Assembly (NCBI GenBank): GCA_035388585.1
Contig: DAOOQE010000020.1
Span: forward strand, 1 to 22,270
Length of the DNA: 22,270 bases
DNA from: Clostridia bacterium
GTDB taxonomy: Bacteria > Bacillota > Clostridia > TANB77 > CAG-508
Direction: 5' to 3'
The position numbers were made by a program, and so were the translations under genes. Below the pieces are notes generated by a model. That model was not told the DNA's origin. It did not search any database and saw only the letters and a list, made by a program, of their open reading frames with translations. Positions 5,952 to 20,651 of this stretch are shown here, one piece after another. The first letter of the stretch is position 1, and every line of letters starts with the position of its first letter.

Positions 5952-6458
5952 CTATTTTACACAAGATAGATATTCTTTATATTTTTTTAACATCCTTATT
6001 TTTATAAAATCTTCCATATATTTATAATTTATACTTCCGATATTTGTAACAGGTAATAAAATTTTCTCTCTTTTTATGCTTTCCTGATTTCCCATTTTTC
6101 CATAACAATATTTTGAACATGTCCTTCTTATTATTTGAGAAAAAAAGATACCTGAATATCTATTAATTTGTTCATTATATAACAATAATATTGATGATCC
6201 AGCTCCACCTCTGCCCAAAAAATTAATGTTTTGATAAAAAGAACTTCCATCTACAGGACTTACAGTTATACAATTTCCTTTGTCTAATTCTTTATCTTTT
6301 TCTAATGGTTCACAAAATCTTATTACACCATTATTGACATTTCCAGAAGCAATAAATGGTATTTTTCCATCTTGATACTGTTTTTCTGAACGTGCAATTG
6401 ATCTTCTAACATTGAATATATTACCCACAAAGAATTCTTTCCATTCAACGTCATTCAA
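5952..6458 (-). CDS. Specificity (S) subunit, second target-recognition domain; an out-of-frame continuation of 6472..7035, probably not independently translated
   Basis: It begins (L)NDVEWKEFFVGNIF, the typical TRD entry motif, and ends ILLPV..NYKYMEDFIKI..KKYKEYL, which parallels the C-terminus of the upstream half. It has only a TTG start, no SD and no in-frame ATG until far inside. Confidence 0.7.
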   Translation of the reverse strand: MNDVEWKEFFVGNIFNVRRSIARSEKQYQDGKIPFIASGNVNNGVIRFCEPLEKDKELDKGNCITVSPVDGSSFYQNINFLGRGGAGSSILLLYNEQINRYSGIFFSQIIRRTCSKYCYGKMGNQESIKREKILLPVTNIGSINYKYMEDFIKIRMLKKYKEYLSCVK

Positions 6459-6471
6459 TTCTGAAATTTGC

Positions 6472-7035
6472 TTATAATGCGTTACCCCCCCCTAGTTTTT
6501 CAAGGGTTTCAGTGCAATATTTAATATATTCTTTTCTTTTTCTTAATTCTATTTCTTTAATATATTCTTCCATAAATCTATAATCTGGTTTTTCATTTTC
6601 ATCTATAGGCAGTAAAATACTTTTTCTTGGTAAATCAGTACTTGATAATTGATTTCCATATGAGCTGTCTCTTGTATTGTTATTAATTGCTGTAATTAAA
6701 AACAATGCCAAATTTTCACTTAATTCTCTATCAATTAGTTTTAATGCATGTACCTTCATATCCAATGTTGCCTTTCCTTTTTGATAGAATGAATTCCCTA
6801 AAAAGTTAACACTTATAAAATTTGAGAATTCTCTTTTATTTTTATCATTGGTATCCCTGTAGCCATCTACTCCATTATTTTGTGATGTGACTGTTATTCT
6901 TGGCGTTTTTCCTTCATTTAAATTTGCTTTGTTGATATACGCACCTGTAGGAACCTGAGTGCCATCGTTATCCTTAGTTTCAAAAATTTCGCCTATTTTA
7001 AATTCTTTCCACTTCTTTTCGCTAAGACTATTCAT
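6472..7035 (-). CDS. Specificity (S) subunit, first target-recognition domain, truncated just after a G8 tract
   Basis: The sequence is MNSLSEKKWKEFKIGEIFE... and ends SILLPIDENEKPDYRFMEEYIKEIELRKRKEYIKYCTETLEKLGGGNAL*. The ATG at 7035 overlaps the methyltransferase stop by 8 nt. The track start at 7056 is a TTG. Confidence 0.75.
   Translation of the reverse strand: MNSLSEKKWKEFKIGEIFETKDNDGTQVPTGAYINKANLNEGKTPRITVTSQNNGVDGYRDTNDKNKREFSNFISVNFLGNSFYQKGKATLDMKVHALKLIDRELSENLALFLITAINNNTRDSSYGNQLSSTDLPRKSILLPIDENEKPDYRFMEEYIKEIELRKRKEYIKYCTETLEKLGGGNAL
6485..6492 (-). repeat. Homopolymer C8 (G8 on the coding strand) at the junction of the two S-subunit halves
   Basis: Counted directly: gttaCCCCCCCCtag. 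This is the longest G/C run in a very AT-rich window, and it sits 10 nt upstream of the S-half-1 stop. Confidence 0.95.
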
Positions 7036-8944
7036 TTTCAGTATCCTCACTTTCAAACATGTATTTTCTCCCTTGCATTATCATTGAAAATTCAAAAGAC
7101 AAATAATCACCAACTGTTTTTTCAAACTCACTTGCTGTTGGAATTTCATCATTAAAATAATAATAACTATGTAACCATTCATCCGTTGGTTCTATTGTTG
7201 TTTTAACACAAAATTTTGTATCATCCTCTATTTTATCAAACCAAACATCAAGCAAATGCTGTTTTTTATCAATTGCTGATTCCGTTTCTATTAATCCAAT
7301 ATGTGGGGCTACTTTATAACCATCATTTTCAAAATTTATAAATTTGCATTCTTTTTCTTTTGGATGTGGCTCACCTGTTGTAAAAATAGCTATACATGGC
7401 ATTGTACCAACTCCATAAAAAGTATCCCCATTTAATGTAATTACCCCTTCTAAAGTATGGTGTTTTAGTATATTTTCTTTTATTGCTTGTTCTTCTTTTG
7501 TTTTTCCCGTTACTGAAGACTGTGGAATAATTACAATTGCTCTTCCTCTTGATACAAGACTATCTAATAAATGCTCTACAAAATTAATTTCATATAAATT
7601 AGGATTTTGTTTTGATCCTTGTGAATAAGGAGGATTCATCATTCCAACTGTTGCACCTTTTAATTGTAATTTATTTGAATCTTGTTTCAAAAAATCATCA
7701 CAATGTAAATTGCTTTTTCCATCTCCTCTTAATATCATATTAGTTGTTGCAATTGTAAACATATAATCTTGTAATTCATATCCATGTAATTGATCTCTTT
7801 TTATTGATTTCTTTTGATTATCATTTTTAGCTTTCTTTAACATATTATGCATTGCTGAAACTAAAAAGCCCGCGGTTCCACAACAGGGATCTAATACAAC
7901 ATCTTCTGGTTTTAAATCTATTAAATCACAAAATAAATTACATATGTGTTTTGGTGTTAAGACTATTCCTAAGCTTTGACCATCACTTCCAGAATAACTC
8001 ATAAACTCTCCATAGAATCTTCCTAAATAATCTTCACTTGTATTATTATATCTAATTGTTTTATATAATTTATTATGCAGAAATTCAGTATAATATCTTA
8101 ATGGAGTAACTCCAAGTGTTTCATTTATCTCATTTAAAATCACAGTATTTTTTATTATAGCAAATTGACTTAATAATTTATCTTTTTTGGTTTCTGGAGA
8201 TACCTGGGATCTTCTTAGGTTATCTTTAATTGCTGAATATATTTTTGCACCATCAGTATTTATTTCATCTCCATTTAAATCATTGATAGAAAAATTTTTA
8301 TAATCTATTTCTTTTAAAGCCAAAAGAATTCCGCTTACTACTAATGGTTTGTCTTTATCACTTAAATTCCCATAATTTCTTAAATTTTCATGCAATTCTT
8401 TAGCATCTTTTAATATTTCTTCAGTTGTTTTTTCATCATCTGTTGCTTCTTTTAATATTTCTCTTATATAGTACTCATCTATATTATCTTCATTAAAAGA
8501 TATGAAACTTTCAACCTCTGGCAAATCCATAAAATATTCTCTTCCATCCAAATAAATTGGTTTTATTATGTGCCTTTTTTCATCTCCACTTATACCAAAT
8601 GCAATTGCTTTCTTATAATGAGTATTTTCTAATATATGTTTAGCATAGAAATATGCACCATTTAAGGCATAATCAGTTACTGAATTAACACTCATATCCA
8701 ATATTCCATTTTCATTGAATTTTGCCTGTTTATCTACACTTGCCTTATCTTCAATAACAATTACAAAATCTTTTACAACGCCACAATATTCAGGAAATCC
8801 TGTATTTCCTGTTCTTTTTTTTGAAGCTGTTTTTAATGCATTATCTAATGCTACTATTTGACTTCCTTGTGGATCTAAATTCAAATTTGCATCTTTTAAT
8901 AAATCATATACCCATAGATCTGTTCTAACTTCCTTCTTTGCCAT
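7028..8944 (-). CDS. Fused PD-(D/E)xK-like N-terminal domain + gamma-class N6-adenine DNA methyltransferase (BcgI-A-like type IIB architecture; alternatively an atypical HsdM)
   Basis: The methyltransferase motif I is VLDPCCGTAGFL and motif IV is GMMNPPYSQG. The N-terminus has GFPEY-x13-VIVIEDKAS, a PE...ExK nuclease-like signature. The gene is translationally coupled to the S gene downstream and the HTH gene upstream. Confidence 0.7.
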   Translation of the reverse strand: MAKKEVRTDLWVYDLLKDANLNLDPQGSQIVALDNALKTASKKRTGNTGFPEYCGVVKDFVIVIEDKASVDKQAKFNENGILDMSVNSVTDYALNGAYFYAKHILENTHYKKAIAFGISGDEKRHIIKPIYLDGREYFMDLPEVESFISFNEDNIDEYYIREILKEATDDEKTTEEILKDAKELHENLRNYGNLSDKDKPLVVSGILLALKEIDYKNFSINDLNGDEINTDGAKIYSAIKDNLRRSQVSPETKKDKLLSQFAIIKNTVILNEINETLGVTPLRYYTEFLHNKLYKTIRYNNTSEDYLGRFYGEFMSYSGSDGQSLGIVLTPKHICNLFCDLIDLKPEDVVLDPCCGTAGFLVSAMHNMLKKAKNDNQKKSIKRDQLHGYELQDYMFTIATTNMILRGDGKSNLHCDDFLKQDSNKLQLKGATVGMMNPPYSQGSKQNPNLYEINFVEHLLDSLVSRGRAIVIIPQSSVTGKTKEEQAIKENILKHHTLEGVITLNGDTFYGVGTMPCIAIFTTGEPHPKEKECKFINFENDGYKVAPHIGLIETESAIDKKQHLLDVWFDKIEDDTKFCVKTTIEPTDEWLHSYYYFNDEIPTASEFEKTVGDYLSFEFSMIMQGRKYMFESEDTENE

Positions 8945-9266: not shown

Positions 9267-10923
9267 GAAGTGAAAAAATAAATGCAAGTATCAATAATAT
9301 ACATTGCAATAAGTCTTACATTGTGTCTTAATGTAGAACATAATGCAATTTTGTTATAATTAAAAAGTAAATGTTTTTGGTAGAAATGGAGTAATAATAT
9401 GATTGAAAAAGGAAAACAAATCACATTAAACCAAAGGATAAGAATTGAAGAAATGTTAAACCAAAGACGTAGAAAATATGAAATTGCAAATGAATTAGAA
9501 AAAAAACAATCAACAATTGCAAGGGAAATTAATCGTCACAAAATTCTAAAACCACATAATATTTACAAATCAGCCAATATGTATAATTGTAAATTTTTTG
9601 TTAATTGCAAAGTATGTACAAATAAATGCCGTATTTTTCAACCAATTTCATGCAAAGAAAGAGATAGAAATATTGGTGTATGCAATAATTGTTCAAAACT
9701 TAAAACATGTAATTTAGACAAATATTTTTATTATGCGGATAAAGCACATGAACAGTATAAATAAACTTTACAAGATTCAAGACAAGGAGTTAATTTAAAT
9801 ACATCAGAATTAATTGAACTTGCACATATAATTTGCCCATTAATAAAAAAAGGACAATCAGTTTACACCATATTAAATAATCACCCCGAAATAAAATTCT
9901 GTGAAAAAACAATATATAATTACATTGAAATGGGATTATTTAAGGATTGGGGCATTACAAATTTAACATTAAAGAGAAAAGTAAAAAGAAGAATTTCAAA
10001 AAAACAATTAAAGAAACGAAAGGAGCCATATAATTACAACGGAAGAACATATACTGATTATTTAGAATTTAAAATTCAAAATCCAAATATAACAACAACA
10101 GAAATGGATACAGTATATAATAATCAATCTGGTCCATACATACAAACATTTATATTTGAAAATACTGAGTTTATGATTGGTGTATTACATACAGAAAAAA
10201 CATCGGATTCAATGTCAGAAAGTCTTAATAAATTTCATGAAAAATTAACTAATAAAGAATATGAACAATTATTTTCAGTATTATTAACAGACAGAGGAAC
10301 GGAATTTATAAAGTCTCAACAATTTTAAATAAACATACATACAGGAGAAATAAAAGGAAAAATATTCTATTGTGATCCAATCCAGTCAAGCCAAAAACCA
10401 CACGTAGAAAACAATCATAATTTTATTAGAGAAATTTTACCAAATGGAAAAAGTTGGAATCATTTAACCCAAGAAAAATTAGATTTAATGTTTTCTCATA
10501 TAAATTCTACACCAAGAGAAAATTTCGCTGGAAAAACACCTTATGAGATATTTACATTTATCTACGGTGAAGAATTAGCACAAAAGTTAAATATACAAAA
10601 GATTGCAAAAGACGAGGTTACCACAACTCCCCGTCTCTTAAAATAAGTTCATTATGATAAAATGAACAACTTAAATTAATATAAATCCAAAAACATTTGC
10701 ATAACCGAAAATTTAATTGCAAAGCAAAATAGCATTTACTTTTACCGCAAAAAAATTAATGCGATTTTGCTTATTAGTCGAGCAAATTTTCTTTGGAATA
10801 TATATTAATTTTACAAAAAAAAAGCAAAAAAAGCAATATTTTCGTTGAAAACACTGCTTTAATCTTGCATTAAATCATACAACTTGCATTTACTTTACAG
10901 AATTGCATTTAACTTTTTACTTC
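9267..10923 (+). mobile_element. IS30-family insertion sequence (degenerate)
   Basis: An imperfect terminal inverted repeat, GAAGTGAAAAAATAAATGCAAGTAT (9267-9291), pairs with the reverse complement of 10899-10923 (GAAGTAAAAAGTTAAATGCAATTCT), about 20 of 25 matches. There are multiple subterminal (A/T)TGCA(A/T)T motifs at both ends. The transposase reading frame lies inside. Confidence 0.55.
9399..10646 (+). pseudogene. IS30-family DDE transposase gene interrupted by two in-frame TAA codons (9762-9764 and 10326-10328)
   Basis: A single reading frame runs from 9399 to 10646. It has an N-terminal HTH (QSTIAREINRH), a Cys-rich linker, D in EMDTVY, D in LLTDRGTEF and E in HVENNHNFIRE, and ends PRENFAGKTPYEIF. 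Track ORFs 9399..9764 and 9930..10328 are in the same frame, as is the unlisted tail. Confidence 0.75.
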
Positions 10924-11298
10924 TCCTGTATATTGAATATTTTTTGTTATAATCATATCTATAGCTGCTCTCAGTATCCTAAAAAAGCCAGTATTTTTTT
11001 CCGGTTTAATAATATTGATTGGGATGGTTAATCGCCTCAATCATTTTTTTTGCAAAAAAAGTAATGCCCTTATTTTAAATACATTATAAAATTAATTCTC
11101 CAAAACAAATAATAAAGTGGTATTAATAAGTGCGTAACAATTGTATCAATAATTTATTAAATTTAAAATGTGTATTTATAAAAAGGTCAAAAATTCAAAA
11201 AATAATATTTCTATATATTTTGAAACAAAATGCAAAGGAATCTTATCATCTGCATATGTTTATTAAACGAATCAATAATCAAAATTTTATCGATATTT

Positions 11299-11652
11299 TT
11301 AATAAAACATTAAAACTGCAACAATAAAAAGATGATAATTCATTTCTGAATTATTTCTTTTGAATATATCATCAGGATTATATTTTTCAATTTTTGCTTG
11401 TTCCATTAATTCTTTATCATATTTTTCTTTTGCTTCTATTCTCTCTTTTTCATAAGATGTTGCCCAATATTTTTTATTTTGAGACACACCAATATCTCTT
11501 AGATGGTTTCTATGGGTATTCAATCTCAAATTATTAGTAGAAAAGTTGGACATTCCAGTGTTCAGGTTACTGATAAATTTTATTCTCATTTCTTTGATGA
11601 GGAATTTAAAAGTGTTTCTACTGTTATGGATGATGTTTTTGCAAATGTTCAT
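11299..11652 (-). CDS. Hypothetical ORF (117 aa), doubtful; possibly a gene remnant
   Basis: There is an open frame only, with no SD before any candidate start. Its last ~50 nt are homologous to window positions 4-55. Confidence 0.3.
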   Translation of the reverse strand: MNICKNIIHNSRNTFKFLIKEMRIKFISNLNTGMSNFSTNNLRLNTHRNHLRDIGVSQNKKYWATSYEKERIEAKEKYDKELMEQAKIEKYNPDDIFKRNNSEMNYHLFIVAVLMFY

Positions 11653-11700
11653 TAAAATAGACGAGATTCAATAATTGATCCCGCCTATTTTTTATTTTTC

Positions 11701-12375
11701 CTATAATCTTAAATCACATAAATATTTTCTTATTTTTACTAAAAGTTTTTCCTTTGTTTCTTTTATTAAATCTTCTTTTTCTTTAATTTCTTCCCACTCT
11801 TTATTTGTCATTTTCAAATCTCTACAACTGCTAAAACTTTCGTTATATTTAACATCAAATTCATACATTGCATACTTATCACCAATTGCAAAACATTCCC
11901 TTCTTATTAAATTTAAATCATTATAAAATTCTTCCATGTAAAACGGTGCATATTTATCAATGCAAATTGAAAACTCATTATACCCCTTACAAAAATTTTC
12001 ATATTTATTCTTTTTGTATTCTTCTAATTCTTTCTCATCAATCGGAACGTTTTCTATGCTCATTGGATATAATATTATTGTTTTTAAATAGCAATCATTT
12101 AGCTTAGGCCATATCTCCATATATATTTTAAATTCGTTCTCATAATTTATTTTTGATACGTATAGTGCTTTTTCCTCTATTTTATCCAATTTATTTAATC
12201 TTTCATTTATTTTTCCCTTAAATTCTTCAACATCTTTACTCATTTTATTTTTATATTTTTCTTCTATATTATTCGCTAATATATTGGCTAAATATTTAGA
12301 TATTCCTATGATAATCGTTCCCATTCCTCCCATTGAAACTATAATAATAGATATAACATTAATTGCATTTTCCAT
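11701..12375 (-). CDS. Membrane-anchored hypothetical protein (N-terminal TM helix + coiled-coil/alpha-helical domain)
   Basis: The N-terminus is AINVISIIIVSMGGMGTIIIGISKYLANIL, which is hydrophobic, followed by a charged helical region. SD-like AAGGAATGAGAAG precedes the ATG, and an extended -10 (TGATATAAT) lies upstream. Confidence 0.6.
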   Translation of the reverse strand: MENAINVISIIIVSMGGMGTIIIGISKYLANILANNIEEKYKNKMSKDVEEFKGKINERLNKLDKIEEKALYVSKINYENEFKIYMEIWPKLNDCYLKTIILYPMSIENVPIDEKELEEYKKNKYENFCKGYNEFSICIDKYAPFYMEEFYNDLNLIRRECFAIGDKYAMYEFDVKYNESFSSCRDLKMTNKEWEEIKEKEDLIKETKEKLLVKIRKYLCDLRL

Positions 12376-12528
12376 AGTCTTCTCATTCCTTTTTTCTTTT
12401 TTCTTTTTTCATATTATATCATCTTCTTTATTGAAAATAAACTCCTCTTTACTTATATAAAAAATTCTCCTCCAAGATTTCCGCCATTTTTTTCAAGACA
12501 AAAAAAATCAAGGAACTTAAAATCCCCT

Positions 12529-12581
12529 GATAAATCTGGTTGCGGGGGTAAGACTCGAACTTACGACCTTCGGGTTATGAG
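12529..12581 (-). repeat. att-like direct repeat, copy 2 (tRNA-Met 3' fragment; tRNA-like part 12537-12581)
   Basis: It is exactly identical to 84-136 and diverges immediately after the anticodon loop (TGCCGAAGG here, CCCGACGAAGC in copy 1). It has no D arm or 5' acceptor. Confidence 0.8.
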
Positions 12582-12787
12582 TGCCGAAGGTCTAATATTT
12601 GCTATTATTTCATTTTGTTTTAAAATGGTGCAATTCGTTGCAAAAGTAAGTATTAAAGTGTTATATTTTAGTATCAATTATTTTGCGTTATTCCCCCTTA
12701 TTTTCCATTTTTGAAACTTTCGCCACTTTTTCGCCACCTATTTTTATGGTGGAATATGGATATTGGGGGTATGGAAAAAGCTGGAGG

Positions 12788-13516
12788 TTATCCTGCGTTA
12801 TTTTTAAAAATTTCATATGATTCTTTTGATATTTTTTCAAATTCTTCCTTATCCATTATTATCTTTTCCAAATTATTTTTATTCAAATCAAATATATAAA
12901 TTTCATGTAATAAACATACATATATTATATTAAATTTTCTTTTTGCATCTTTCTGAATATTATTTATTTTTACCAATTCATTTTCTGCTTCTTCTTTTGT
13001 AACTAATATCGGTGTAAATATAAATAATCTATTATCTAAAATTTCTGAGTTATAATGATCATTTAATTTCTCTAATTTTTCATTAATACTTTTATTAACA
13101 TATGAAAAATCATCATTATAAACTGGAATAATATAAAAATAATTTTCATTAAATCCAAAGCTATCACGATAGTTTTCACCAAATATAATTCTAGCTAACT
13201 CTGGTGTAATAACTCTTCCTCCATTTTTTTCAAATTTCTTATTAAATTGCTTTATTTTTGAATCAGGTACAGGCTTCTTTACATTTTCTAAATCTCTCCA
13301 AAATTTAGTTCCTTCACTATTTCTTGTAACTTCAATTCCAATACTATTTTTTAAATCCTGCCAATCTGGTTCTTCTTTATCTTCAAACTTATCAATATCT
13401 ATTTGTATATACTCTTTTAATAATTTAAATGCAAATAGTTCAAAATATTTCTTTTCTATATCATGTTTCATAACAATATTCACTTCCTTTACCACTGCCA
13501 CATGGGCATATTTCAT
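12788..13516 (-). CDS. Hypothetical protein with a possible PD-(D/E)xK-like signature
   Basis: The candidate motif is EEPDWQD-x6-IGIEVTR, a PD...E-x-(K/T)-like pattern, and it is weak. Two starts are possible: 13516, an ATGA overlap with the upstream pseudogene, or the ATG at 13471, preceded by AAGGAAGTGA. Confidence 0.55.
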   Translation of the reverse strand: MKYAHVAVVKEVNIVMKHDIEKKYFELFAFKLLKEYIQIDIDKFEDKEEPDWQDLKNSIGIEVTRNSEGTKFWRDLENVKKPVPDSKIKQFNKKFEKNGGRVITPELARIIFGENYRDSFGFNENYFYIIPVYNDDFSYVNKSINEKLEKLNDHYNSEILDNRLFIFTPILVTKEEAENELVKINNIQKDAKRKFNIIYVCLLHEIYIFDLNKNNLEKIIMDKEEFEKISKESYEIFKNNAG

Positions 13517-14006
13517 TTAAATATACTTTCAAATTCTAACGGAATTATATCTTCATAAATAACCGTGAACTCAGGATTCACTTGTTTATTCTCATGGTAA
13601 TGTCCTAAGAACCATTTCTTAAATTCCGTCTTTTCATATATTTCCTGTAAATAATCCATCAATTCATCTTTTCTATATTTTCCAATTATAGCTTGTATAT
13701 TGGTTGGACAACAATGTGAAAATATATAATCAACTTTAAAATTAACTTTTTCTAAATTTCTAATTCCATTTTCCATTTCTTCTTTTGTTGGCATTTCTAG
13801 ATCCTACCATGAAAAATCTCTAATTCTAAAATATGCCCCTCTTTTTCTCTACTACTTTCTTCTTCAAATGTCCATACCCCACCAAAATCTCCGCATATAA
13901 TAACATAGTCATTCTTTGTCATTTCTTTTTGTATTGGAAACTTTTCTGTTGTAAATCTTTCAAAATTTGAATGTGTATCTCCTGTTATATAAATCATAAC
14001 TATCAC
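13513..14006 (-). pseudogene. Calcineurin-like metallophosphoesterase with an internal deletion (split into 69-aa and 93-aa ORFs)
   Basis: The N-terminal piece has IYITGDTHSNF and VIICGDFGG (motifs I and II). The C-terminal piece has FSHCCP and LGHYHENK. The central GNHE-containing region expected between them is absent, and the two pieces are in different frames, separated by a TAG. Confidence 0.6.
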
Positions 14007-14064
14007 TCCTCTTCGGTATTATACTATATTCATCTATTAATATCTATTAAAATTCCATAAATAC

Positions 14065-14094
14065 TTGACTTTTGGCTTTATTTAAGTGATTAAT
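14065..14094 (+). promoter_or_regulatory. Candidate promoter of backbone operon, copy 2
   Basis: TTGACT (14065-14070), an 18-nt spacer, then ATTAAT (14089-14094). This is conserved with copy 1. Confidence 0.4.
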
Positions 14095-14122
14095 AACAGC
14101 AATTTTTAAGGAGGTGAATTAT

Positions 14123-14413
14123 ATGAGCTTTAGAGAAGTTCGTGATGACATTTTTAGATATTGGCTTGATTATCGTGAAGGAACTGAACTTGCTTTTACT
14201 AATTCTGAAGATAAAAAACATGTGATACTTTTTGATGAAATTTGTGAAAATATTTTAAATAATGTTTCTGGAAGTAATTATGAATATATTCAAAAACAAT
14301 TAAATAAACTTGATGATAATTTTATGGATTATGTTGGTTATTGGAATGAAAAGTATTATAGAAATGGTTTCTGTGACGGCTTAGAATTGATAATAGGCTG
14401 TTTAAATAAATAA
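14123..14413 (+). CDS. Hypothetical 96-aa backbone protein, copy 2
   Basis: The ATG at 14123 follows AAGGAGGTG. It has one amino-acid difference (D to Y) from copy 1. Confidence 0.75.
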   Translation: MSFREVRDDIFRYWLDYREGTELAFTNSEDKKHVILFDEICENILNNVSGSNYEYIQKQLNKLDDNFMDYVGYWNEKYYRNGFCDGLELIIGCLNK

Positions 14414-14428
14414 GGTGGTGAATTATGT

Positions 14429-14596
14429 ATGTATATTATTAAAACTACTTATAATGGTGAACAAATCTATCAAGTTTGTCCTAGCTGTAACAAAGAGTTT
14501 AATTACTATCCTGCTATTTCTAGGAAAGATAATAAAACTGAAATCTGTCCTAAATGTGGTATGATGGAAGCTTTGGATAAATTTATAAGAGCATAA
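14429..14596 (+). CDS. 4-Cys zinc-ribbon small protein (55 aa), intact copy
   Basis: The product is MYIIKTTYNGEQIYQVCPSCNKEFNYYPAISRKDNKTEICPKCGMMEALDKFIRA*. It has a CPSC...CPKC pair, SD AAGGTGGTG upstream, and a TAA at 14594-14596. Confidence 0.7.
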   Translation: MYIIKTTYNGEQIYQVCPSCNKEFNYYPAISRKDNKTEICPKCGMMEALDKFIRA

Positions 14597-14600
14597 AAGT

Positions 14601-14636
14601 GACCAGGAATTTTTCCTGGTCTTATATTATTTTTCC
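14601..14636. terminator. Hairpin terminator between the convergent backbone operon and the NTPase gene
   Basis: GACCAGGA (14601-14608), a 5-nt loop, TCCTGGTC (14614-14621), then TTATATTATTTTTCC. Confidence 0.65.
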
Positions 14637-14657: not shown

Positions 14658-17600
14658 CTAATACTCATCTTCATCCCAAACGAACTTTATGAATTTTGAA
14701 TAGTCTACTTTTTTATTCATTTCTTGATAAATTTCATATTTACAATTTTTACAATTTTCTTTATATTCAATGTTTATCGAAGATAAGTTATTATTTTTTA
14801 TGTTTTGTATAATATTACCATTTTCATCAATTTCAATATGCATAGATGCTTCTTCATTCCAGCCTTTATCTAAATAGCTTTTTTCTGTATATGCCCAATA
14901 TTTTATTTGATGTTCTTTCATAACTTCCTCTAAATATTTAGTTTTTATGTAGATCACTCCTGTTATAGGATTATTATAATAAGATTTGCTATTATTATCA
15001 CAATAAGCTATAGCCTCTCCATCAGCATTATCCCATGTTGAATATTTCCTGTTATAGTGTAAATTTAGTTCTGACACTATTATGTTCGGCGGCAATTTTA
15101 AATATGTTTCTTTAAAATCCAGAGAATTATATTCTATATCTCTTATTCTCATTGACCTTTCATAATTTTTTTCTTTATATTTTTCTATGTTTCCTATATA
15201 ATCTTTATTCCCTATTGTTAATTCTTTTGGTTCTATATCCGCTGCTATACTTCTTATTGAGTCTATACCAACATTATAATCATATGTTTCTGTATATATA
15301 TGTTTATTATCTTTATCTGACACATATCTATGAATATCTGCACATATTAATGTCCATTGTTCTTTTTCACATAATATTGGTGTCATTAACTTTTTTATAT
15401 TTTCAATAGAAAGTTCCTTTTTATTATACCATTCATCATCTCTTTTACCATATAAATCTAATCTTTTAATAACTTCATTATTTAATCTATCTATTTTTTC
15501 ACAATATATACTAACTGGAGAACATATCCTATATTCTTCTTCATTTAAATTAATAGGTTCATAAACTTTATATCCAAATGTTTTGTTGTCATTATACACA
15601 CTAATTTCATTTGTAAAATAATTACACATTAGTGAACCTAATAATATGTCCTGTGATATTAATAAAATTTTCTTTAAAATCGAATTACCGAACACATTAA
15701 GATGAGTATCAAATTTATCATTTTCTTTTGAATATCTATAATTATACTTATCACAAATATCTATAAATACTTTCTGAAATGCTATAAATATTTTTCGGTT
15801 ATCTATTTCTATTATCTGCAATGGTTTTAAATGTTTTTTGAACCTTTCACCATTGCCATATTTACAATACCCATCATCTTTTACACATCCAAATTTATTA
15901 TTTAATTCTTTATTCCATTCTATAATTTCATCTTTGTCATTTAAAATAAAATTATTATATATTGATAATTCATTTTCTTTATTATATCTTTCAAATTTCA
16001 ATAAATATTTTTCATAAATATCAGCTATAAAAATTATATAATTTAAATCAATATCCTTATCTACATGGTCATTTTCCGTAATTTCATTGTAAATATCATA
16101 TTTATTTAATTCAATGTATTCTATATTTCTTTCTAAAAAATCAGATATTCTATAAATTATTTCAGCATCTATTTGTGAATAATCATTTAAAACATCTTCT
16201 AGAAAATTAATCAAATTATCATCTTTAATATTAGTAGCTGTTAGTACTCTTATTATACCTTTCCTGATATAGTATTCATCGACTTTATAATAGTATTCGC
16301 GTAATATATCTGCATAATCATTAAATTTATCTACAATATCAAACAAAACTTTTAAAGCTAATTTTCTAATTCTGTCATTTGAGGATGATGTTAACCAAAA
16401 AGAATACCAAAATGCCTCTTCAATATAATCATTTTTTTCCTCAATAAAAATAATACTATATAACATATTTTTTAGTTTCATTATATATATTGAATCAGAA
16501 TAATTAACAGTTATGCCTCCCATATAATTTTTATTTTCTATTAATTTATTTGTTAAATAATTACTACAATTAAAAGGTCTGCTATGATATCCTCCTAAAT
16601 CCAAAAAAACGCTTTGCACATTTCTTATTGTAAATTCATTTTGTATAAAATCTATTTGCTCTTTTGAAAAGACAATTTTCTTAAGTATTGATAATTCAAA
16701 ATATTCTTTCAATTTTGAATTGAATATAATATTTAATGCTCTTTTAATATTTTGGTTTTTAAAACGGTCAAATATTAATATAATAAACGGCTCATATAAA
16801 GAATACATTTTAGATAATTTTTCATTAATCATATCGATTATTTTATCATCACTTAATCCATTAATTTTGTCGTGCAAAGTTCTAGCAATAATAAAATCAG
16901 AAAGCTTTTGTATATTAAAAACATATCTTTTTTTACTATCATAAATGTAAAAATCTATCAAACTGTTACTTTTCATCGTTCCTATATAATCTATTGCTTC
17001 ATTCTTCAATATGTTTTTAATTTCTTGTTCCTCTACTGATGTTTTATTATTTTCAAACATATATGTACCTAATTTTTTTTTATTATCCCAATATTTTCTA
17101 CCACATATTGTTTTTATATATTGTTCTAATATAAAAGTTACTTGTACTAAATCACCAATTTCTTCTTTTTTTATTTTAGGATTTTCTAATATCTTGTATA
17201 ACATTTTTAAATATAAAGGATTATTAGTTTCAATAACATCAATAAACTTTGTCACTTCTACACCATATGTTTCGATTATTTTTGTTAAACTTGATTCATA
17301 TTCCACTCCTTTAAAAGTATATATATTTTTTAGTATATTTTTTAAACTTTCTTCTATATCCAAATCAAGATTCTTGGTTCTATAACTAACAATAATGTTT
17401 ATATTACCTTTCGTTGCCATTTTTCTTATAAATTCCAGCATAACTTTCTGTTCATTTTGTTCTAACTCATTAAATGCATCTATAATCAAATAAAATTCGT
17501 TATCTATATTTTTAATTCTTTCTTCTATTTCCTTCTCAATACTTTTTGTATATTTACAATAAATACATAAATGTTGTATTGATAATCTTTCCAGTTCCTC

Positions 17601-18050
17601 CTCTAATTTAAATAAAAAGTAACTCTTTCCTATTCCACCTTCCCCATCCATTAAAAGTCTATTCGCCATCGATAGATTTTTTTTGTAATATTCAATATCA
17701 TATTTATTATGATATTTTAGAATTTCAAATTTCTCAAGAATAAATTTAAACTCTTTGTCTATATTTTCTATAAATGTCTTTTCTTTAATCTCCCTTCTAT
17801 TCATCTTTCTGATATTATCATTAATATTCTTTAAATAATCCCTATTATCTAAAAATTCTTTTGGATTATTAGAATATGGATGAATATCATCAAATCGCTT
17901 CAAAAGTACATTCATTATTTCTTCATCTTCCCATTTTAAATCAAAATCTGTTCTTGTTTCTGAAATCATATGCATTCTGTTTTTATAATTAATTTCATCT
18001 ATTGTCACATTTATCTCCTTCTTTTTTTTCATTAAATACAAAAAAAGCAA
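14658..18050 (-). CDS. Large STAND/NACHT-like P-loop NTPase with a helical (HEAT/ARM-like) repeat region and an uncharacterised C-terminal domain; candidate defence protein
   Basis: The Walker A motif is LLMDGEGGIGKSYF. The Walker B-like motif FYLIIDAFNELE lies about 50 residues later. A HEAT-like signature (SSSNDRIRKLALKVLFDIVD...IRKGIIRVLT) follows. The true start is probably the GTG at 18008 (AAGGAG, then 6 nt) or the ATG at 18032, because a hairpin plus T-run overlaps the first track codons. Confidence 0.7.
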   Translation of the reverse strand: MLFLYLMKKKKEINVTIDEINYKNRMHMISETRTDFDLKWEDEEIMNVLLKRFDDIHPYSNNPKEFLDNRDYLKNINDNIRKMNRREIKEKTFIENIDKEFKFILEKFEILKYHNKYDIEYYKKNLSMANRLLMDGEGGIGKSYFLFKLEEELERLSIQHLCIYCKYTKSIEKEIEERIKNIDNEFYLIIDAFNELEQNEQKVMLEFIRKMATKGNINIIVSYRTKNLDLDIEESLKNILKNIYTFKGVEYESSLTKIIETYGVEVTKFIDVIETNNPLYLKMLYKILENPKIKKEEIGDLVQVTFILEQYIKTICGRKYWDNKKKLGTYMFENNKTSVEEQEIKNILKNEAIDYIGTMKSNSLIDFYIYDSKKRYVFNIQKLSDFIIARTLHDKINGLSDDKIIDMINEKLSKMYSLYEPFIILIFDRFKNQNIKRALNIIFNSKLKEYFELSILKKIVFSKEQIDFIQNEFTIRNVQSVFLDLGGYHSRPFNCSNYLTNKLIENKNYMGGITVNYSDSIYIMKLKNMLYSIIFIEEKNDYIEEAFWYSFWLTSSSNDRIRKLALKVLFDIVDKFNDYADILREYYYKVDEYYIRKGIIRVLTATNIKDDNLINFLEDVLNDYSQIDAEIIYRISDFLERNIEYIELNKYDIYNEITENDHVDKDIDLNYIIFIADIYEKYLLKFERYNKENELSIYNNFILNDKDEIIEWNKELNNKFGCVKDDGYCKYGNGERFKKHLKPLQIIEIDNRKIFIAFQKVFIDICDKYNYRYSKENDKFDTHLNVFGNSILKKILLISQDILLGSLMCNYFTNEISVYNDNKTFGYKVYEPINLNEEEYRICSPVSIYCEKIDRLNNEVIKRLDLYGKRDDEWYNKKELSIENIKKLMTPILCEKEQWTLICADIHRYVSDKDNKHIYTETYDYNVGIDSIRSIAADIEPKELTIGNKDYIGNIEKYKEKNYERSMRIRDIEYNSLDFKETYLKLPPNIIVSELNLHYNRKYSTWDNADGEAIAYCDNNSKSYYNNPITGVIYIKTKYLEEVMKEHQIKYWAYTEKSYLDKGWNEEASMHIEIDENGNIIQNIKNNNLSSINIEYKENCKNCKYEIYQEMNKKVDYSKFIKFVWDEDEY

Positions 18051-18092
18051 AATATCTAAACAATTATTTTTTAATCGTTAATTATTTTGCTT
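18039..18092 (-). terminator. Possible terminator after dpnB (long-loop hairpin + T-run)
   Basis: The minus strand reads AAGCAAAATA (18092-18083), a 28-nt loop, TATTTTGCTT (18054-18045), then TTTTTTG. The loop is long for an intrinsic terminator. Confidence 0.4.
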
Positions 18093-18106
18093 TCTTTAGT
18101 GACTAT

Positions 18107-18970
18107 TTAATTAAAAACCTTTTTCATTACTCCATTTTTCATATCAGCAATATTATAAATATTATCCATTCTATCAAATGTTTCTTTTAAATTATTTCTT
18201 GCAGAAATCCATCCCATTCCATCTGTAAACCACACAAATTCAAAGCCTACAACTTTATCTGATTCTTCTGATAACATTTTATAGCTTCTTGCTGTTTCAT
18301 TTAATTTTGAGCCACCTGTAGCATAGAAATTAGTTTCAATTCCATAAATGCAATTATCCGTTTTAACTACAAAATCAAATCTCTTAGTTGATTGATTTTT
18401 ATTGCTTATAAAAGACATGTCTAATTTCCATTTTTCTTCTATATCTTGTAAATACATTTCTTTAAAATATGTTTCATTCTTCTTAAATCCAGCTTTTTGA
18501 ATAAATTTTTCTACAACATCTTCCATTAAATGTCCACCACGATTCTTTCTTGCATTCGAATTTAATCCACATTCAACTCCTAAAACATAATCATACAAAT
18601 TATTTACCATATGATTATGTAGCAAATCAAAAAGTCCTGTTTCTTTCATAAATACTTTATATTGTTCAACATCATAATTCATTTTTTTAAAATTATATTC
18701 AAATTTATTTCCTTCTTCATCTAGCACAATAATTTCTGATTGTCTTACTGCTAAAAGAGTAGGAATACATTTTAATACTTCTGGATATTTCTTTACTAAT
18801 TCTTCAAAATCATTTTCTATATTTTGACTACTAATTAGTGAATTTAAAATATTTAATTCTATTTTATATATTTCTGCATTTTTATATATAGTTTCAAAAT
18901 CTATGTAATATTTATAGTTAGCTATACTATCTGTAAAAGTTAACAGCCATTCTGCAAAATTTCTTTTCAT
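18107..18970 (-). CDS. dpnB: DpnII/MboI-family type II restriction endonuclease (GATC)
   Basis: The sequence appears collinear with my recollection of S. pneumoniae DpnII: NFAEWL..TDS.A...YY.DF..YKN.....ELNILNSLI.S.NIE.DF, then GLFDLL.NH.V.NL.DYV.GVE.G...N.RKNR.G..ME. It is the last gene of the M-M-R operon. Confidence 0.8.
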   Translation of the reverse strand: MKRNFAEWLLTFTDSIANYKYYIDFETIYKNAEIYKIELNILNSLISSQNIENDFEELVKKYPEVLKCIPTLLAVRQSEIIVLDEEGNKFEYNFKKMNYDVEQYKVFMKETGLFDLLHNHMVNNLYDYVLGVECGLNSNARKNRGGHLMEDVVEKFIQKAGFKKNETYFKEMYLQDIEEKWKLDMSFISNKNQSTKRFDFVVKTDNCIYGIETNFYATGGSKLNETARSYKMLSEESDKVVGFEFVWFTDGMGWISARNNLKETFDRMDNIYNIADMKNGVMKKVFN

Positions 18971-18972
18971 AT

Positions 18973-19746
18973 TTATTCCTCCATTATTTCTTTATATCTT
19001 CTTATTGATAAATCCAAATATTCTTTTGATTTATCAATTCCAACAAAATTTCTATTTAGTTTACTAGCAGCAACTCCTGTTGTACTGCTCCCACTGAATG
19101 GATCCAATATTAAATCATTTTCATTTGTTGATGCTAATATTATTCTTTCTAATACTTCTAATGGTTTCTGTGTAGGATGCTTCCCGTGTTTCTTTTCAGA
19201 TGGTTTAGTTAACGAAGTAGTCCATACATCCTTCATTTGTTTATTATTATTTAACTCTTTCATTAAATTATAGTTAAACTTATACTTTACTTTTGGTAAA
19301 TCTTTTCTTGCCCATAATATTGTTTCTGTTGAATGTGTAAAAGTTTTACATGCTAAATTAGGAGATGGATTTGTTTTCTGCCAAGTAATATTATTGATTA
19401 TTTTAAATCCTTCTTCTTCTAATGCCATACCAATTGAATATACATTGTGAAGAGTTCCACTTATCCATATTGTTCCTTCATCTTTTAAAACTCTATAACA
19501 TTCCTTTATCCAATTTCTATTATATTCATGTTTTTCTTTTACTGTTGATGTCTTATCCCATTTTCCTTTATTTACACTAACCATTTTTCCACTGCTACAA
19601 GTTATTCCATCATTGGATAAAAAATATGGAGGATCTGCAAAAATCATATCAAATGATTTTTCTCTCATTTCCTTTAGTGAATCAAAAGTATCATTATCGA
19701 TTAGTTTAAAACTATCTTCTTCAAAGTAGAATTTTCCTGGATACAT
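18973..19746 (-). CDS. dpnA: Beta-class N6-adenine DNA methyltransferase, DpnA-like (second methylase of a DpnII-type cassette)
   Basis: Motif IV (MIFADPPYFLSNDG) is N-terminal and motif I (ILDPFSGSSTTGVAA) is C-terminal. NITWQKTNP and GKHPTQKP blocks match DpnA as I recall it. Confidence 0.8.
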   Translation of the reverse strand: MYPGKFYFEEDSFKLIDNDTFDSLKEMREKSFDMIFADPPYFLSNDGITCSSGKMVSVNKGKWDKTSTVKEKHEYNRNWIKECYRVLKDEGTIWISGTLHNVYSIGMALEEEGFKIINNITWQKTNPSPNLACKTFTHSTETILWARKDLPKVKYKFNYNLMKELNNNKQMKDVWTTSLTKPSEKKHGKHPTQKPLEVLERIILASTNENDLILDPFSGSSTTGVAASKLNRNFVGIDKSKEYLDLSIRRYKEIMEE

Positions 19747-20651
19747 TCATTCATCTCCTCGTAGTTAGTAATAAGCAATTCTGATATTGCTCCTCTACCT
19801 TTAGCATTTGCATTTATCATTCTTTTTGCTGATACTTCATTTATATTAAATCCTTTATATATTTCTTCAAAAAAAGTATCTTCTTCATTAGTGTTTTTAG
19901 GATTTGAATTTGACAACATTAGTTTAGCGTTTTTCAAACTTAATTCTCTAAAATATATTGCTAATTCTTTTTGATTTTCATCATTAAAATCTTCTTTTGT
20001 ATACGATGTAAATCCTGATGAAACTGATAATGGTCTATAAGGTGGATCAAAATAAACAAAAGTATTATTATCTATATATTTTTCACTTTTTTTGTAGTCT
20101 CCATATTTAAAAACCACACTTCTTATTAAATAAGATAAGTTTCTCAAATTTTCAGAATCGCAGATTTTAGGATTTTTATATTTACCACATGGCACATTAT
20201 AATCACCACTTTTATTTACTCTATACAGTCCATTAAAACATGTTCTATTCAAAAATATAAATTCACTTGCTCTTTTTATACTTTGTTCATTTTCGCTTAT
20301 TTTATATGAATTATATTCTTTTCTAATATTATAAAAATACTTTTGTCTTTCATCAGATTCCAATACAAGAAATTCTTTTTCTTTTTTATATAATTCATGT
20401 ATTATCTCTTCAACATTATTTTTAATAACATTATAACAATTTATTAGATCCATATTTATATCAAAAGCATATGCTTCTTTAACATCATATTTTTGTAAAA
20501 TATTTATTAAAACTGCTCCTCCACCAATAAATGGTTCTACATATTTAGTTATTTTATCTCTCTCTATTTCAAATGGGTAAAATTTTTTTATTTGTGGAAT
20601 CAAACTTCCTTTTCCTCCGGCCCATTTTACAAACGGTCTTATTTCTTTCAT
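19701..20651 (-). CDS. dpnM: Dam-family (alpha-class) N6-adenine DNA methyltransferase, DpnM-like (GATC)
   Basis: The motifs are FVKWAGGK, EPFIGGGAV, NGLYRVN and FVYFDPPY, and it ends ELLITNY. SD AGGAGA precedes the ATG at 20651. Its 3' end overlaps the dpnA start by 46 nt. Confidence 0.85.
   Translation of the reverse strand: MKEIRPFVKWAGGKGSLIPQIKKFYPFEIERDKITKYVEPFIGGGAVLINILQKYDVKEAYAFDINMDLINCYNVIKNNVEEIIHELYKKEKEFLVLESDERQKYFYNIRKEYNSYKISENEQSIKRASEFIFLNRTCFNGLYRVNKSGDYNVPCGKYKNPKICDSENLRNLSYLIRSVVFKYGDYKKSEKYIDNNTFVYFDPPYRPLSVSSGFTSYTKEDFNDENQKELAIYFRELSLKNAKLMLSNSNPKNTNEEDTFFEEIYKGFNINEVSAKRMINANAKGRGAISELLITNYEEMNECIQENSTLKKIVLN

Follow-up and report, generated by a model that had tools for sequence, protein, structure and literature searches.

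Analysis of a 22,270-nt stretch of DNA from a Clostridia bacterium (contig DAOOQE010000020.1 of assembly GCA_035388585.1; hereafter the window, meaning the whole stretch) revealed that its longest open reading frame (ORF) encodes a STAND NTPase, and that this gene is an effector-less variant of Avs2 (AVAST type 2), not a categorically new system. The gene lies on the minus strand at 14658..18008, and its product of 1116 aa belongs to a family that is, judged from sequence comparison, a remote but specific homolog of Avs2. We consider it reasonably probable that the protein acts in defence as an Avs2-type sensor of phage proteins that has no effector, carried as autonomous cargo of an integrative island. 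Coordinates refer to the window, and residue numbers to the 1116-aa form of the protein.

The preliminary description of this gene, made from the sequence alone, had proposed an undescribed system, a claim that gave way once distant family members were compared with known structures. A profile of the 19 most distant members was searched against every PDB chain sequence, and the sole strong match was 9o4e_A, which is EcAvs2 (“AVAST type 2 anti-phage system protein Avs2”, 1484 aa; E = 3.6e-19). Profile positions 111-601 (491 positions) align to EcAvs2 331-887, a stretch that extends well beyond the P-loop to take in the winged helix and reach the first helices of the TPR, and no Avs3, Avs4, Avs5, NLR, MalT or other STAND sequence was matched in this search even at E <= 10. 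Motifs are paired along the alignment (family/EcAvs2: NNPLYLK/KNPLFLK, GGYxxRPFNC/GLVGHPFNA and FWLTSSSNDRIRKLALK/WFLTSSNRELRDCSTK), and the beginning of the EcAvs2 TPR is matched by the first ~190 aa of the helical repeats, with GGYxxxPFNC and FWLxSSxNxRIRxLAxK among the aligned motifs. Similarly, when an alignment headed by the window protein was compared by hhalign with EcAvs2 331-887 (reconstructed from the HMMER output), the two matched over 469 columns covering window aa 115-589 (97.0% probability, E = 8.3e-11), and BLASTP of the window protein alone gave E = 7e-4 over the ATPase. Identity between the window family and EcAvs2 is 18%. In PADLOC (v2.0.0), the Avs2 model PDLC02164 matched eight of 31 members (best E = 1.8e-18) and PDLC02166 matched two, and no other Avs or NACHT model matched among the 31; in this Avs2 scan, six of the 14 most distant members are gut Lachnospiraceae examples. 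Because of the profile, hhalign and BLASTP results, the relationship to Avs2 is regarded as specific though distant.

The window family and Avs2 (EcAvs2, KpAvs2 and VcAvs2-trypsin) have homologous ATPase, winged-helix and first TPR parts, several motifs in common (GxGIGKS, IDAINE, NNPLxLK, GxxxxPFN and WxLxSSNxxxR) and, judging from the predicted architecture, the same order of ATPase, helical repeats and beta-rich C-terminal domain. Like Avs2, the family is single-gene, horizontally mobile and found in defence islands. However, the window family lacks the N-terminal effector, which in Avs2 is an Mrr-like nuclease, a trypsin-like protease or the ~240-aa domain of EcAvs2; the window protein is about 370 aa shorter than EcAvs2 (1116 vs 1484 aa) and is missed by the PADLOC Avs2 models; and the hosts are gut anaerobes (Clostridia, Bacilli, Fusobacterium and Treponema) in place of the Proteobacteria of Avs2. 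VcAvs2-trypsin is a 1461-aa protein with a 203-aa trypsin effector and a 131-aa insertion (bioRxiv 10.64898/2026.08.25.746987). Minus the effector and the insertion it would have ~1127 aa, which agrees in size with the 1116 aa of the window protein.

The gene and the parts of its product are as follows.

14658..18008, minus strand: coding sequence of the 1116-aa Avs2-like STAND NTPase, with GTG as its probable start and the stop codon included
17673..18008, minus strand: N-terminal helical region, modelled with confidence, aa 1-~112, from the secondary structure and predicted local distance difference test (pLDDT) of the model
16809..17672, minus strand: STAND NTPase module, aa ~113-400, from invariant columns, Foldseek, Pfam on homologs and the EcAvs2 alignment
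16044..16808, minus strand: alpha-helical repeat region, aa ~401-655, from DSSP of the model and the EcAvs2 alignments
14661..16043, minus strand: C-terminal alpha/beta region, aa ~656-1116, from a separate AlphaFold2 model, Foldseek and conservation

In the window, whose G+C content is about 25%, the mechanical ORF runs from a TTG codon over 14658-18050 of the minus strand (1130 aa) and is the longest one, as had been stated. GTG 18008 is the most likely true start, for a product of 1116 aa. We took 14658-18008 as the gene because an AAGGAG ribosome-binding site (RBS) at 18020-18015 stands 6 nt ahead of this in-frame GTG, the database protein P0001, 100% identical to the window protein, has a length of 1116 aa, and the gene at locus L061 (87% identical) has an ATG at the exact codon that matches GTG 18008. 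The ratio of nonsynonymous to synonymous substitution rates (dN/dS) between the window gene and that of L061 is 0.17 overall and 0.12-0.22 per domain, the N-terminus included. Every domain is under purifying selection, and because the ratio is low in each of them, the gene encodes a functional protein and is no decayed remnant.

Both nucleotide-binding motifs that had been read by eye, Walker A (GEGGIGKS, aa 122-129) and Walker B (LIIDAFNELE, aa 174-183), are present. G122, G125, G127, K128, D177, A178, N180, E181 and R210 are invariant in 31 homologs with identity down to 28%, and the same nine residues, including the sensor R210, are at least 98% conserved across 102 full-length homologs. 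The full-length AlphaFold2 model, built from the 31-sequence alignment (mean pLDDT 85.4, predicted TM-score 0.79), has the expected helical repeat region followed by a C-terminal region. Its STAND module is ordered as a nucleotide-binding domain with Walker A (K128), an extended Walker B (IIDAFNE; D177 and E181) and sensor R210, then helical and then winged-helix subdomains. Foldseek search of this model against PDB returned, in order, EfAvs5, NLRC4, SAMD9, NLRP7, Avs4, TPR-STAND, NLRP3 and NAIP5, and Cdc6/ORC/RFC AAA+ proteins rank below the STAND/NLR entries. Because Avs and NLR structures are ranked ahead of AAA+ proteins, the STAND/NLR-type assignment of the preliminary description is upheld; by motif and by fold the window protein is a STAND NTPase (NACHT-like). 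The window protein itself scores under the Pfam cut-offs (NPHP3_N 21.5 bits, cut-off 24.8; NACHT 16.1 bits, cut-off 26.7), its NCBIfam match to EruA (E = 0.024) is below threshold, and phmmer against PDB sequences gave nothing useful. Homologs exceed the Pfam gathering scores, P0015 for nSTAND3, NACHT and NPHP3_N and P0027 for nSTAND3 and NPHP3_N. These Pfam families and bNACHT share the P-loop module with the window family; nSTAND3, NACHT and NPHP3_N cover the ATPase module alone and are silent on sensor or output.

What remains unusual about the family is that an N-terminal effector is missing altogether from all its members. Searches with Pfam, PADLOC and NCBIfam found no nuclease, SIR2, TIR, protease, HTH or membrane domain in the window protein, in line with the earlier remark that no effector could be recognised and the N-terminus could not be assigned. 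The N-terminal ~112 aa obtained no Pfam, PADLOC, NCBIfam or PDB assignment and had no match at E <= 1 against Pfam, adaptor-domain models included; a profile of this region gave only compositional matches to designed helical repeats and no recurring Pfam family. It is the least conserved part of the protein (19% identity to distant members), and its length is conserved. Effector domains are absent from ~50 full-length clusters at 50% identity (among the matches listed) and from at least 330 clusters at 90% identity, and N-terminal additions or domain swapping are seen in no family member. In EcAvs2, the ATPase starts near residue 331, after the N-terminal effector and a “helical extension” that contacts the terminase (PMC13601566), and the HMMER envelope on EcAvs2 extends back to residue 238. 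The 112-aa helical N-terminus of the window protein may correspond to this helical extension, in which case no effector at all would be left in the window protein.

For the C-terminal several hundred residues, in which no effector motif had been recognised by eye, a significant structural match was obtained. The last 470 aa (aa 647-1116) were modelled separately by AlphaFold2 (pLDDT 83.5), and Foldseek against PDB gave one significant match, to both chains of 8dgc, the complex of SeAvs3 with the PhiV-1 terminase (E = 4.9e-7, probability 1.0, 390 columns; the next entry has E = 0.09). The match is reported without coordinates, its TM-scores are low (0.33 and 0.10), as is expected from multi-domain flexibility, and 8dgc is outside the top 50 in the full-length Foldseek search. 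No match to 9o4e was found with the full-length or the C-terminal model, in a library that may not hold 9o4e. Because neither Cap4 nuclease nor other STAND entries matched the C-terminal model, the match probably lies in the portion that only Avs3 has among solved structures, its sensor. Avs3 has the STAND core in common with the window family and is the sole significant structural match of the window C-terminus; however, it is a 2028-aa protein with a Cap4 nuclease and a much longer TPR, without sequence similarity to the window family. The ATPase of the family is closer to that of Avs2 than to that of Avs3, because the sequence profile does not match 8dgc. Avs2 and Avs3 have a common beta-strand-rich C-terminal sensor domain, which together with the TPR clasps the ATPase domain of the terminase (PMC13601566; bioRxiv 10.64898/2026.08.25.746987). 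Searches of the C-terminal model against the viral structures of BFVD gave no match, the C-terminal profile found nothing among PDB sequences, and the C-terminal alignment recovered family fragments only, and no other architectures, from a 5.8-billion-protein index.

The C-terminal residues conserved at 90% or more in the 102 sequences are aromatic residues (W and Y), Gly, Pro, Asn and the cysteines C708, C715, C1086 and C1089, which could plausibly form a Zn(Cys)4 clasp. Because the conserved residues are mostly structural and only two are charged, this half of the protein was taken as a binding scaffold with no active site, and the models make the C-terminal alpha/beta region a probable ligand-binding sensor. 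Alternatively, this region could be an unrecognised enzymatic effector, with the helical repeats alone as the sensor. Its conservation equals that of the ATPase, no family matches it in sequence, and E1042, H1057 and E1059 are near-invariant in the 31-sequence alignment. However, in the 102 sequences the conserved charged residues of the C-terminal half shrink to K780 and E1042, the rest being structural residues and the four cysteines; the sole structural match is the sensor-bearing Avs3 entry and no enzyme; and STAND effectors are normally N-terminal. We consider an enzymatic C-terminus highly improbable. A PD-(D/E)xK reading of YCDNN, YTEK and HxE was rejected, since D1004 is not conserved and H1057 and E1059 are below 90% in the larger alignment. 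Separately, the 584-aa protein P0173 has N-terminal ~420 aa that resemble a phage tape-measure protein, fused in frame to a clear homolog of the last ~140 aa of the family (profile 957-1098, E = 5e-39); it is either a chimera of assembly or gene calling, or a phage having captured the C-terminal module of the sensor.

From these features, a mechanism can be proposed for the effector-less Avs2-type sensor. In the resting protein, the repeats and the cysteine-stabilised C-terminal domain would pack on the NACHT-like ATPase and hold it off. During infection, a conserved phage protein would bind a pocket that the repeats form with the C-terminal domain. The precedents of Avs2 and Avs3 would make the phage large terminase the likeliest ligand, and within an Avs2-like defence reading we put its chances at roughly even. 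The ATP-bound ATPase modules would then oligomerise, probably as tetramers as in Avs2-4. Our preferred guess for the output is that the ~110-aa N-terminal helical regions become clustered and the ligand is tightly captured, which would give a non-enzymatic toxic or recruiting function, or a direct block of DNA packaging. The options for the output would be a non-enzymatic action of the clustered N-termini, recruitment of an unlinked partner and direct sequestration of the ligand, which we do not rank with any confidence. We infer the oligomeric state and the output, and the output step is speculative because characterised Avs proteins need an effector and none was found in the window family. 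That a receptor derived from Avs2 still defends without an effector, by an ATP-dependent oligomer that traps terminase and sequesters the packaging motor, as non-abortive immunity, or by a new non-enzymatic N-terminal output, seems to us on the unlikely side.

Several results weigh against an Avs2-type defence function. The window protein has no PADLOC match at E <= 1, and the HMMER profile of its own alignment missed 9o4e among PDB sequences, so that the link to Avs2 depends on profile-profile comparison and on transitivity via distant members. Beyond window aa ~590, sequence similarity to Avs2 or Avs3 is undetectable. All characterised Avs proteins need the effector domain, whose deletion abolished activity in all tested families (PMC12803255). 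Furthermore, neither effector swapping nor a hypervariable sensor is seen in the window family, and the absence of either is atypical for Avs; the defence function is itself something we infer.

Another possibility is that the Avs2-like sensor acts without any effector or cell killing, by stoichiometric binding of the ATPase/active-site surface of the terminase, with avidity from the oligomer, so that the packaging motor is sequestered. Absence of effector domains across the family clusters and purifying selection on all domains are in favour of it, and Avs2 and Avs3 bind the ATPase active site of the terminase together with its ATP (PMC13601566; bioRxiv 10.64898/2026.08.25.746987), which would be inhibitory in itself. 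However, such sequestration has no precedent, the effector deletions cited above argue against it, and strict conservation of the ATPase motifs suggests signalling over plain binding. We regard sequestration as quite unlikely.

To look for a partner, every gene up to four positions away from the STAND gene was clustered across 60 loci. No neighbour cluster is present in more than nine of the 60 loci, and there is no conserved small ORF beside the gene. The commonest neighbours are a RumA-type methyltransferase, which we take to be an integration target, type I HsdR, RhuM, a DpnII restriction-modification (R-M) cassette on the opposite side, and serine recombinases. Among 118 genes at +-2 positions in 36 non-redundant loci (counted by family, without a per-locus statistic), Pfam identified ResIII (6), SWI2/SNF2 (4), several DNA methyltransferases, serine recombinases (4), RhuM, YhcG and AAA_21, and PADLOC identified mad2 (5), RmrA (4), type II and type III methyltransferases and PDC-S05 (3). 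The neighbourhood is rich in defence genes and has no conserved housekeeping operon. The closest homolog, P0004 (84% identical, Hadza gut contigs, L061-L065), stands alone between housekeeping genes (NUDIX and pyrophosphatase) and the same backbone module as in the window, with an integrase beyond, and the DpnII cassette is absent beside it. Because this locus lacks DpnII and no conserved partner exists, the STAND gene travels and persists alone, and the earlier view of a single-gene system is borne out by its behaviour as autonomous cargo in defence and mobile islands. DpnII as a functional partner was rejected, as the locus of the closest homolog lacks it and elsewhere it flanks the STAND gene on its opposite side.

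At locus L035, the family member is directly followed by a radical-SAM-like ORF (13610-14398, CPVRCKFC motif), of which no counterpart was seen at other loci. This ORF recalls Avap1, the radical-SAM accessory protein of the KpAvs2 operon (PMC11564622). The effector could be encoded elsewhere in the genome or island and, on activation, be recruited by the N-terminal helical region, like in sensor/helper NLR pairs or in Avs2-trypsin, whose target is a separate metallo-beta-lactamase (MBL) protein. Multi-gene Avs2 systems are precedents for such a split, namely KpAvs2 with Avap1/Avap2 (PMC11564622) and Avs2-trypsin-MBL (bioRxiv 10.64898/2026.08.25.746987), and the helical N-terminus of constant length (~110 aa) and the L035 ORF would agree with it. 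However, the lack of any conserved neighbour or small ORF, the movement of the gene alone between phyla and the failure of Pfam adaptor-domain models to match the N-terminus at E <= 1 make a split system decidedly doubtful.

Three further features of the window surround the gene.

18107..20651, minus strand: DpnII-type R-M cassette, comprising a D12 methyltransferase, an N6_N4 methyltransferase and the DpnII endonuclease (Pfam)
18032..18110, minus strand: terminator- or attenuator-like hairpin with a U-run, between the stop codon of the DpnII endonuclease and the RBS of the STAND gene (RNA folding)
14601..14621, no strand assigned: bidirectional terminator hairpin, rich in G+C, that separates the stop codon of the STAND gene from the convergent backbone module (terminator scan)

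The preliminary description had placed the gene head-to-tail with a DpnII cassette, separated from it by a hairpin, and in the cargo slot after a backbone module that holds an AbiL-like system in the sister island; this layout was found as described. The DpnII endonuclease (18107-18970) and the two methyltransferases (18973-20651) are directly upstream of the STAND gene on the same strand, and the cassette is a neighbour and no required partner. The hairpin at 18032..18110 has a folding energy of -20.9 kcal/mol (z = -5.68; none of 200 shuffles as stable) and overlaps the upstream in-frame TTG and ATG codons. It abuts the RBS and a promoter does not fit, which suggests that transcription either enters from the DpnII operon by attenuated read-through or begins within the endonuclease gene, where candidate promoter sites were found. 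Low expression would fit a potentially toxic sensor. The terminator at 14601..14621 (9-bp stem with five GC pairs) was found on both strands and is conserved in the sister island. A backbone module of ~570 nt occurs twice, at ~640-1230 and ~14030-14625, with 96% identity over 300 nt. It contains one ORF of 99 aa and a small zinc-ribbon ORF of the pattern CxxC...CxxC, and is closed by the G+C-rich bidirectional terminator. In the sister island the module is followed by the AbiL-like pair RloB and AAA_21. In L061-L065, the part with the 99-aa ORF flanks the STAND gene, and the adjoining 77-aa product is annotated as DUF7695.

Besides the STAND gene, the window carries the AbiL-like pair, GmrSD, type I modification and specificity genes and the DpnII R-M cassette, and by its gene content it is a defence archipelago. 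A 53-nt perfect direct repeat is present at 84-136 and 12529-12581; on the minus strand it corresponds to a tRNA 3' half (CAU anticodon loop through acceptor end), and ARAGORN found no complete tRNA in the window. The two repeats look like att scars of two tandem integrative islands at a tRNA-Met/Ile2 gene beyond the right end of the window. At 5952-8944, HsdM (638 aa) precedes two separate specificity ORFs of half the usual size (194 and 168 aa), each with a single Methylase_S domain; HsdR is not in the window, and the GmrSD type IV enzyme adjoins these ORFs. Near the right end of the first island, ~1 kb (10328-11299) lacks ORFs of at least 80 aa on both strands and could represent the remains of a recombination module; this island has no recognised integrase.

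The family is large and widely distributed. At 90% clustering there are 62 full-length relatives of the window protein, and the distant-branch profile recovered at least 330 clusters at 90% identity, several of which have hundreds of member sequences. A HMMER scan of 1.84 billion representatives gave 460 matches, and ~50 of those listed are full-length clusters at 50% identity. These full-length ones have 1053-1175 aa and one architecture, the sole outlier being the distant relative P0205 (1208 aa). The 60 genome loci come from gut and rumen Lachnospiraceae, Oscillospiraceae, metagenome-assembled genomes (MAGs) of “Bacilli”, Erysipelotrichaceae, Oribacterium, Extibacter, Diplocloster, Granulicatella, Fusobacterium necrophorum, Treponema, an Anaerolineaceae MAG and Muribaculaceae bins. 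To our knowledge, Avs proteins have not been studied in the hosts of this family. Tblastn against plasmids and phages found no family members, with weak P-loop matches from query P0055. In one widespread sub-branch (P0046, P0246, P0257, P0274 and the L012/L043 genes at 9977-13729), an extra ~110-aa Spx/ArsC/glutaredoxin-like domain is present at the C-terminus (Pfam ArsC E = 1e-16, NCBIfam Spx/MgsR E = 2e-28), and one of these clusters has 243 member sequences. The window protein lacks this extension, which may serve as a regulator or as an output that works through redox or by binding RNA polymerase.

Proteins with at least 80% identity occur across phyla, in Granulicatella, Lachnospiraceae, Fusobacterium necrophorum, Diplocloster, Extibacter and Clostridiales S5-A14a (loci L010, L029, L032, L047, L048, L056 and L057). 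In several of these loci the flanks are alike as well, with a RumA-type tRNA/rRNA U5 methyltransferase upstream in L010, L029, L032 and L047 and RhuM downstream in L029, L047, L048 and L056, which suggests recent transfer of a single mobile element across phyla. Additionally, the STAND gene is broken into two to four ORFs by frameshifts or stops in L007, L020, L032, L045, L048, L050 and L054, including the copy of F. necrophorum ATCC 25286, and these broken reading frames indicate recurrent inactivation. Because the gene is patchy across phyla, mobile and present in decaying copies, the pattern is typical of defence genes. A non-immune function, as a STAND-type regulator or in maintenance of the mobile element (for example helper-phage sensing for island induction), appears extremely improbable. 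The gene is carried on integrative islands beside integrase and replication modules, and non-defence STANDs are interleaved with defence clades (PMC12803255). However, the window protein has no DNA-binding or other output domain, the gene occurs in several island types (rumA-associated elements, beside type I R-M and beside DpnII), and its homology is specifically to Avs2, a proven antiphage protein.

In the STAND catalogue of 589 clades, Enterobacteriaceae representatives alone were tested (PMC12803255). NCBI names the members “hypothetical protein”, “ATP-binding protein” or “NACHT domain-containing protein”. Since these labels are generic and PADLOC misses the branch of the window protein, Avs-type sensors in gut Clostridia may be under-counted. 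In characterised bacterial Avs/NLR-like proteins the sensor is joined to a fused death effector. Absence of effectors from the whole family is of interest because effector deletion inactivates all tested Avs proteins. Here is a family that is abundant, with hundreds of metagenomic copies in some clusters, under purifying selection and, it appears, recently moved between phyla of gut anaerobes, in which the ATPase and the sensor alone are retained. The question raised is whether an NLR-like receptor can protect by ligand capture alone, or does so via an unrecognised output. If effector-less defence is true, the window protein would represent the first “sensor-only” NLR-like immune protein of bacteria.

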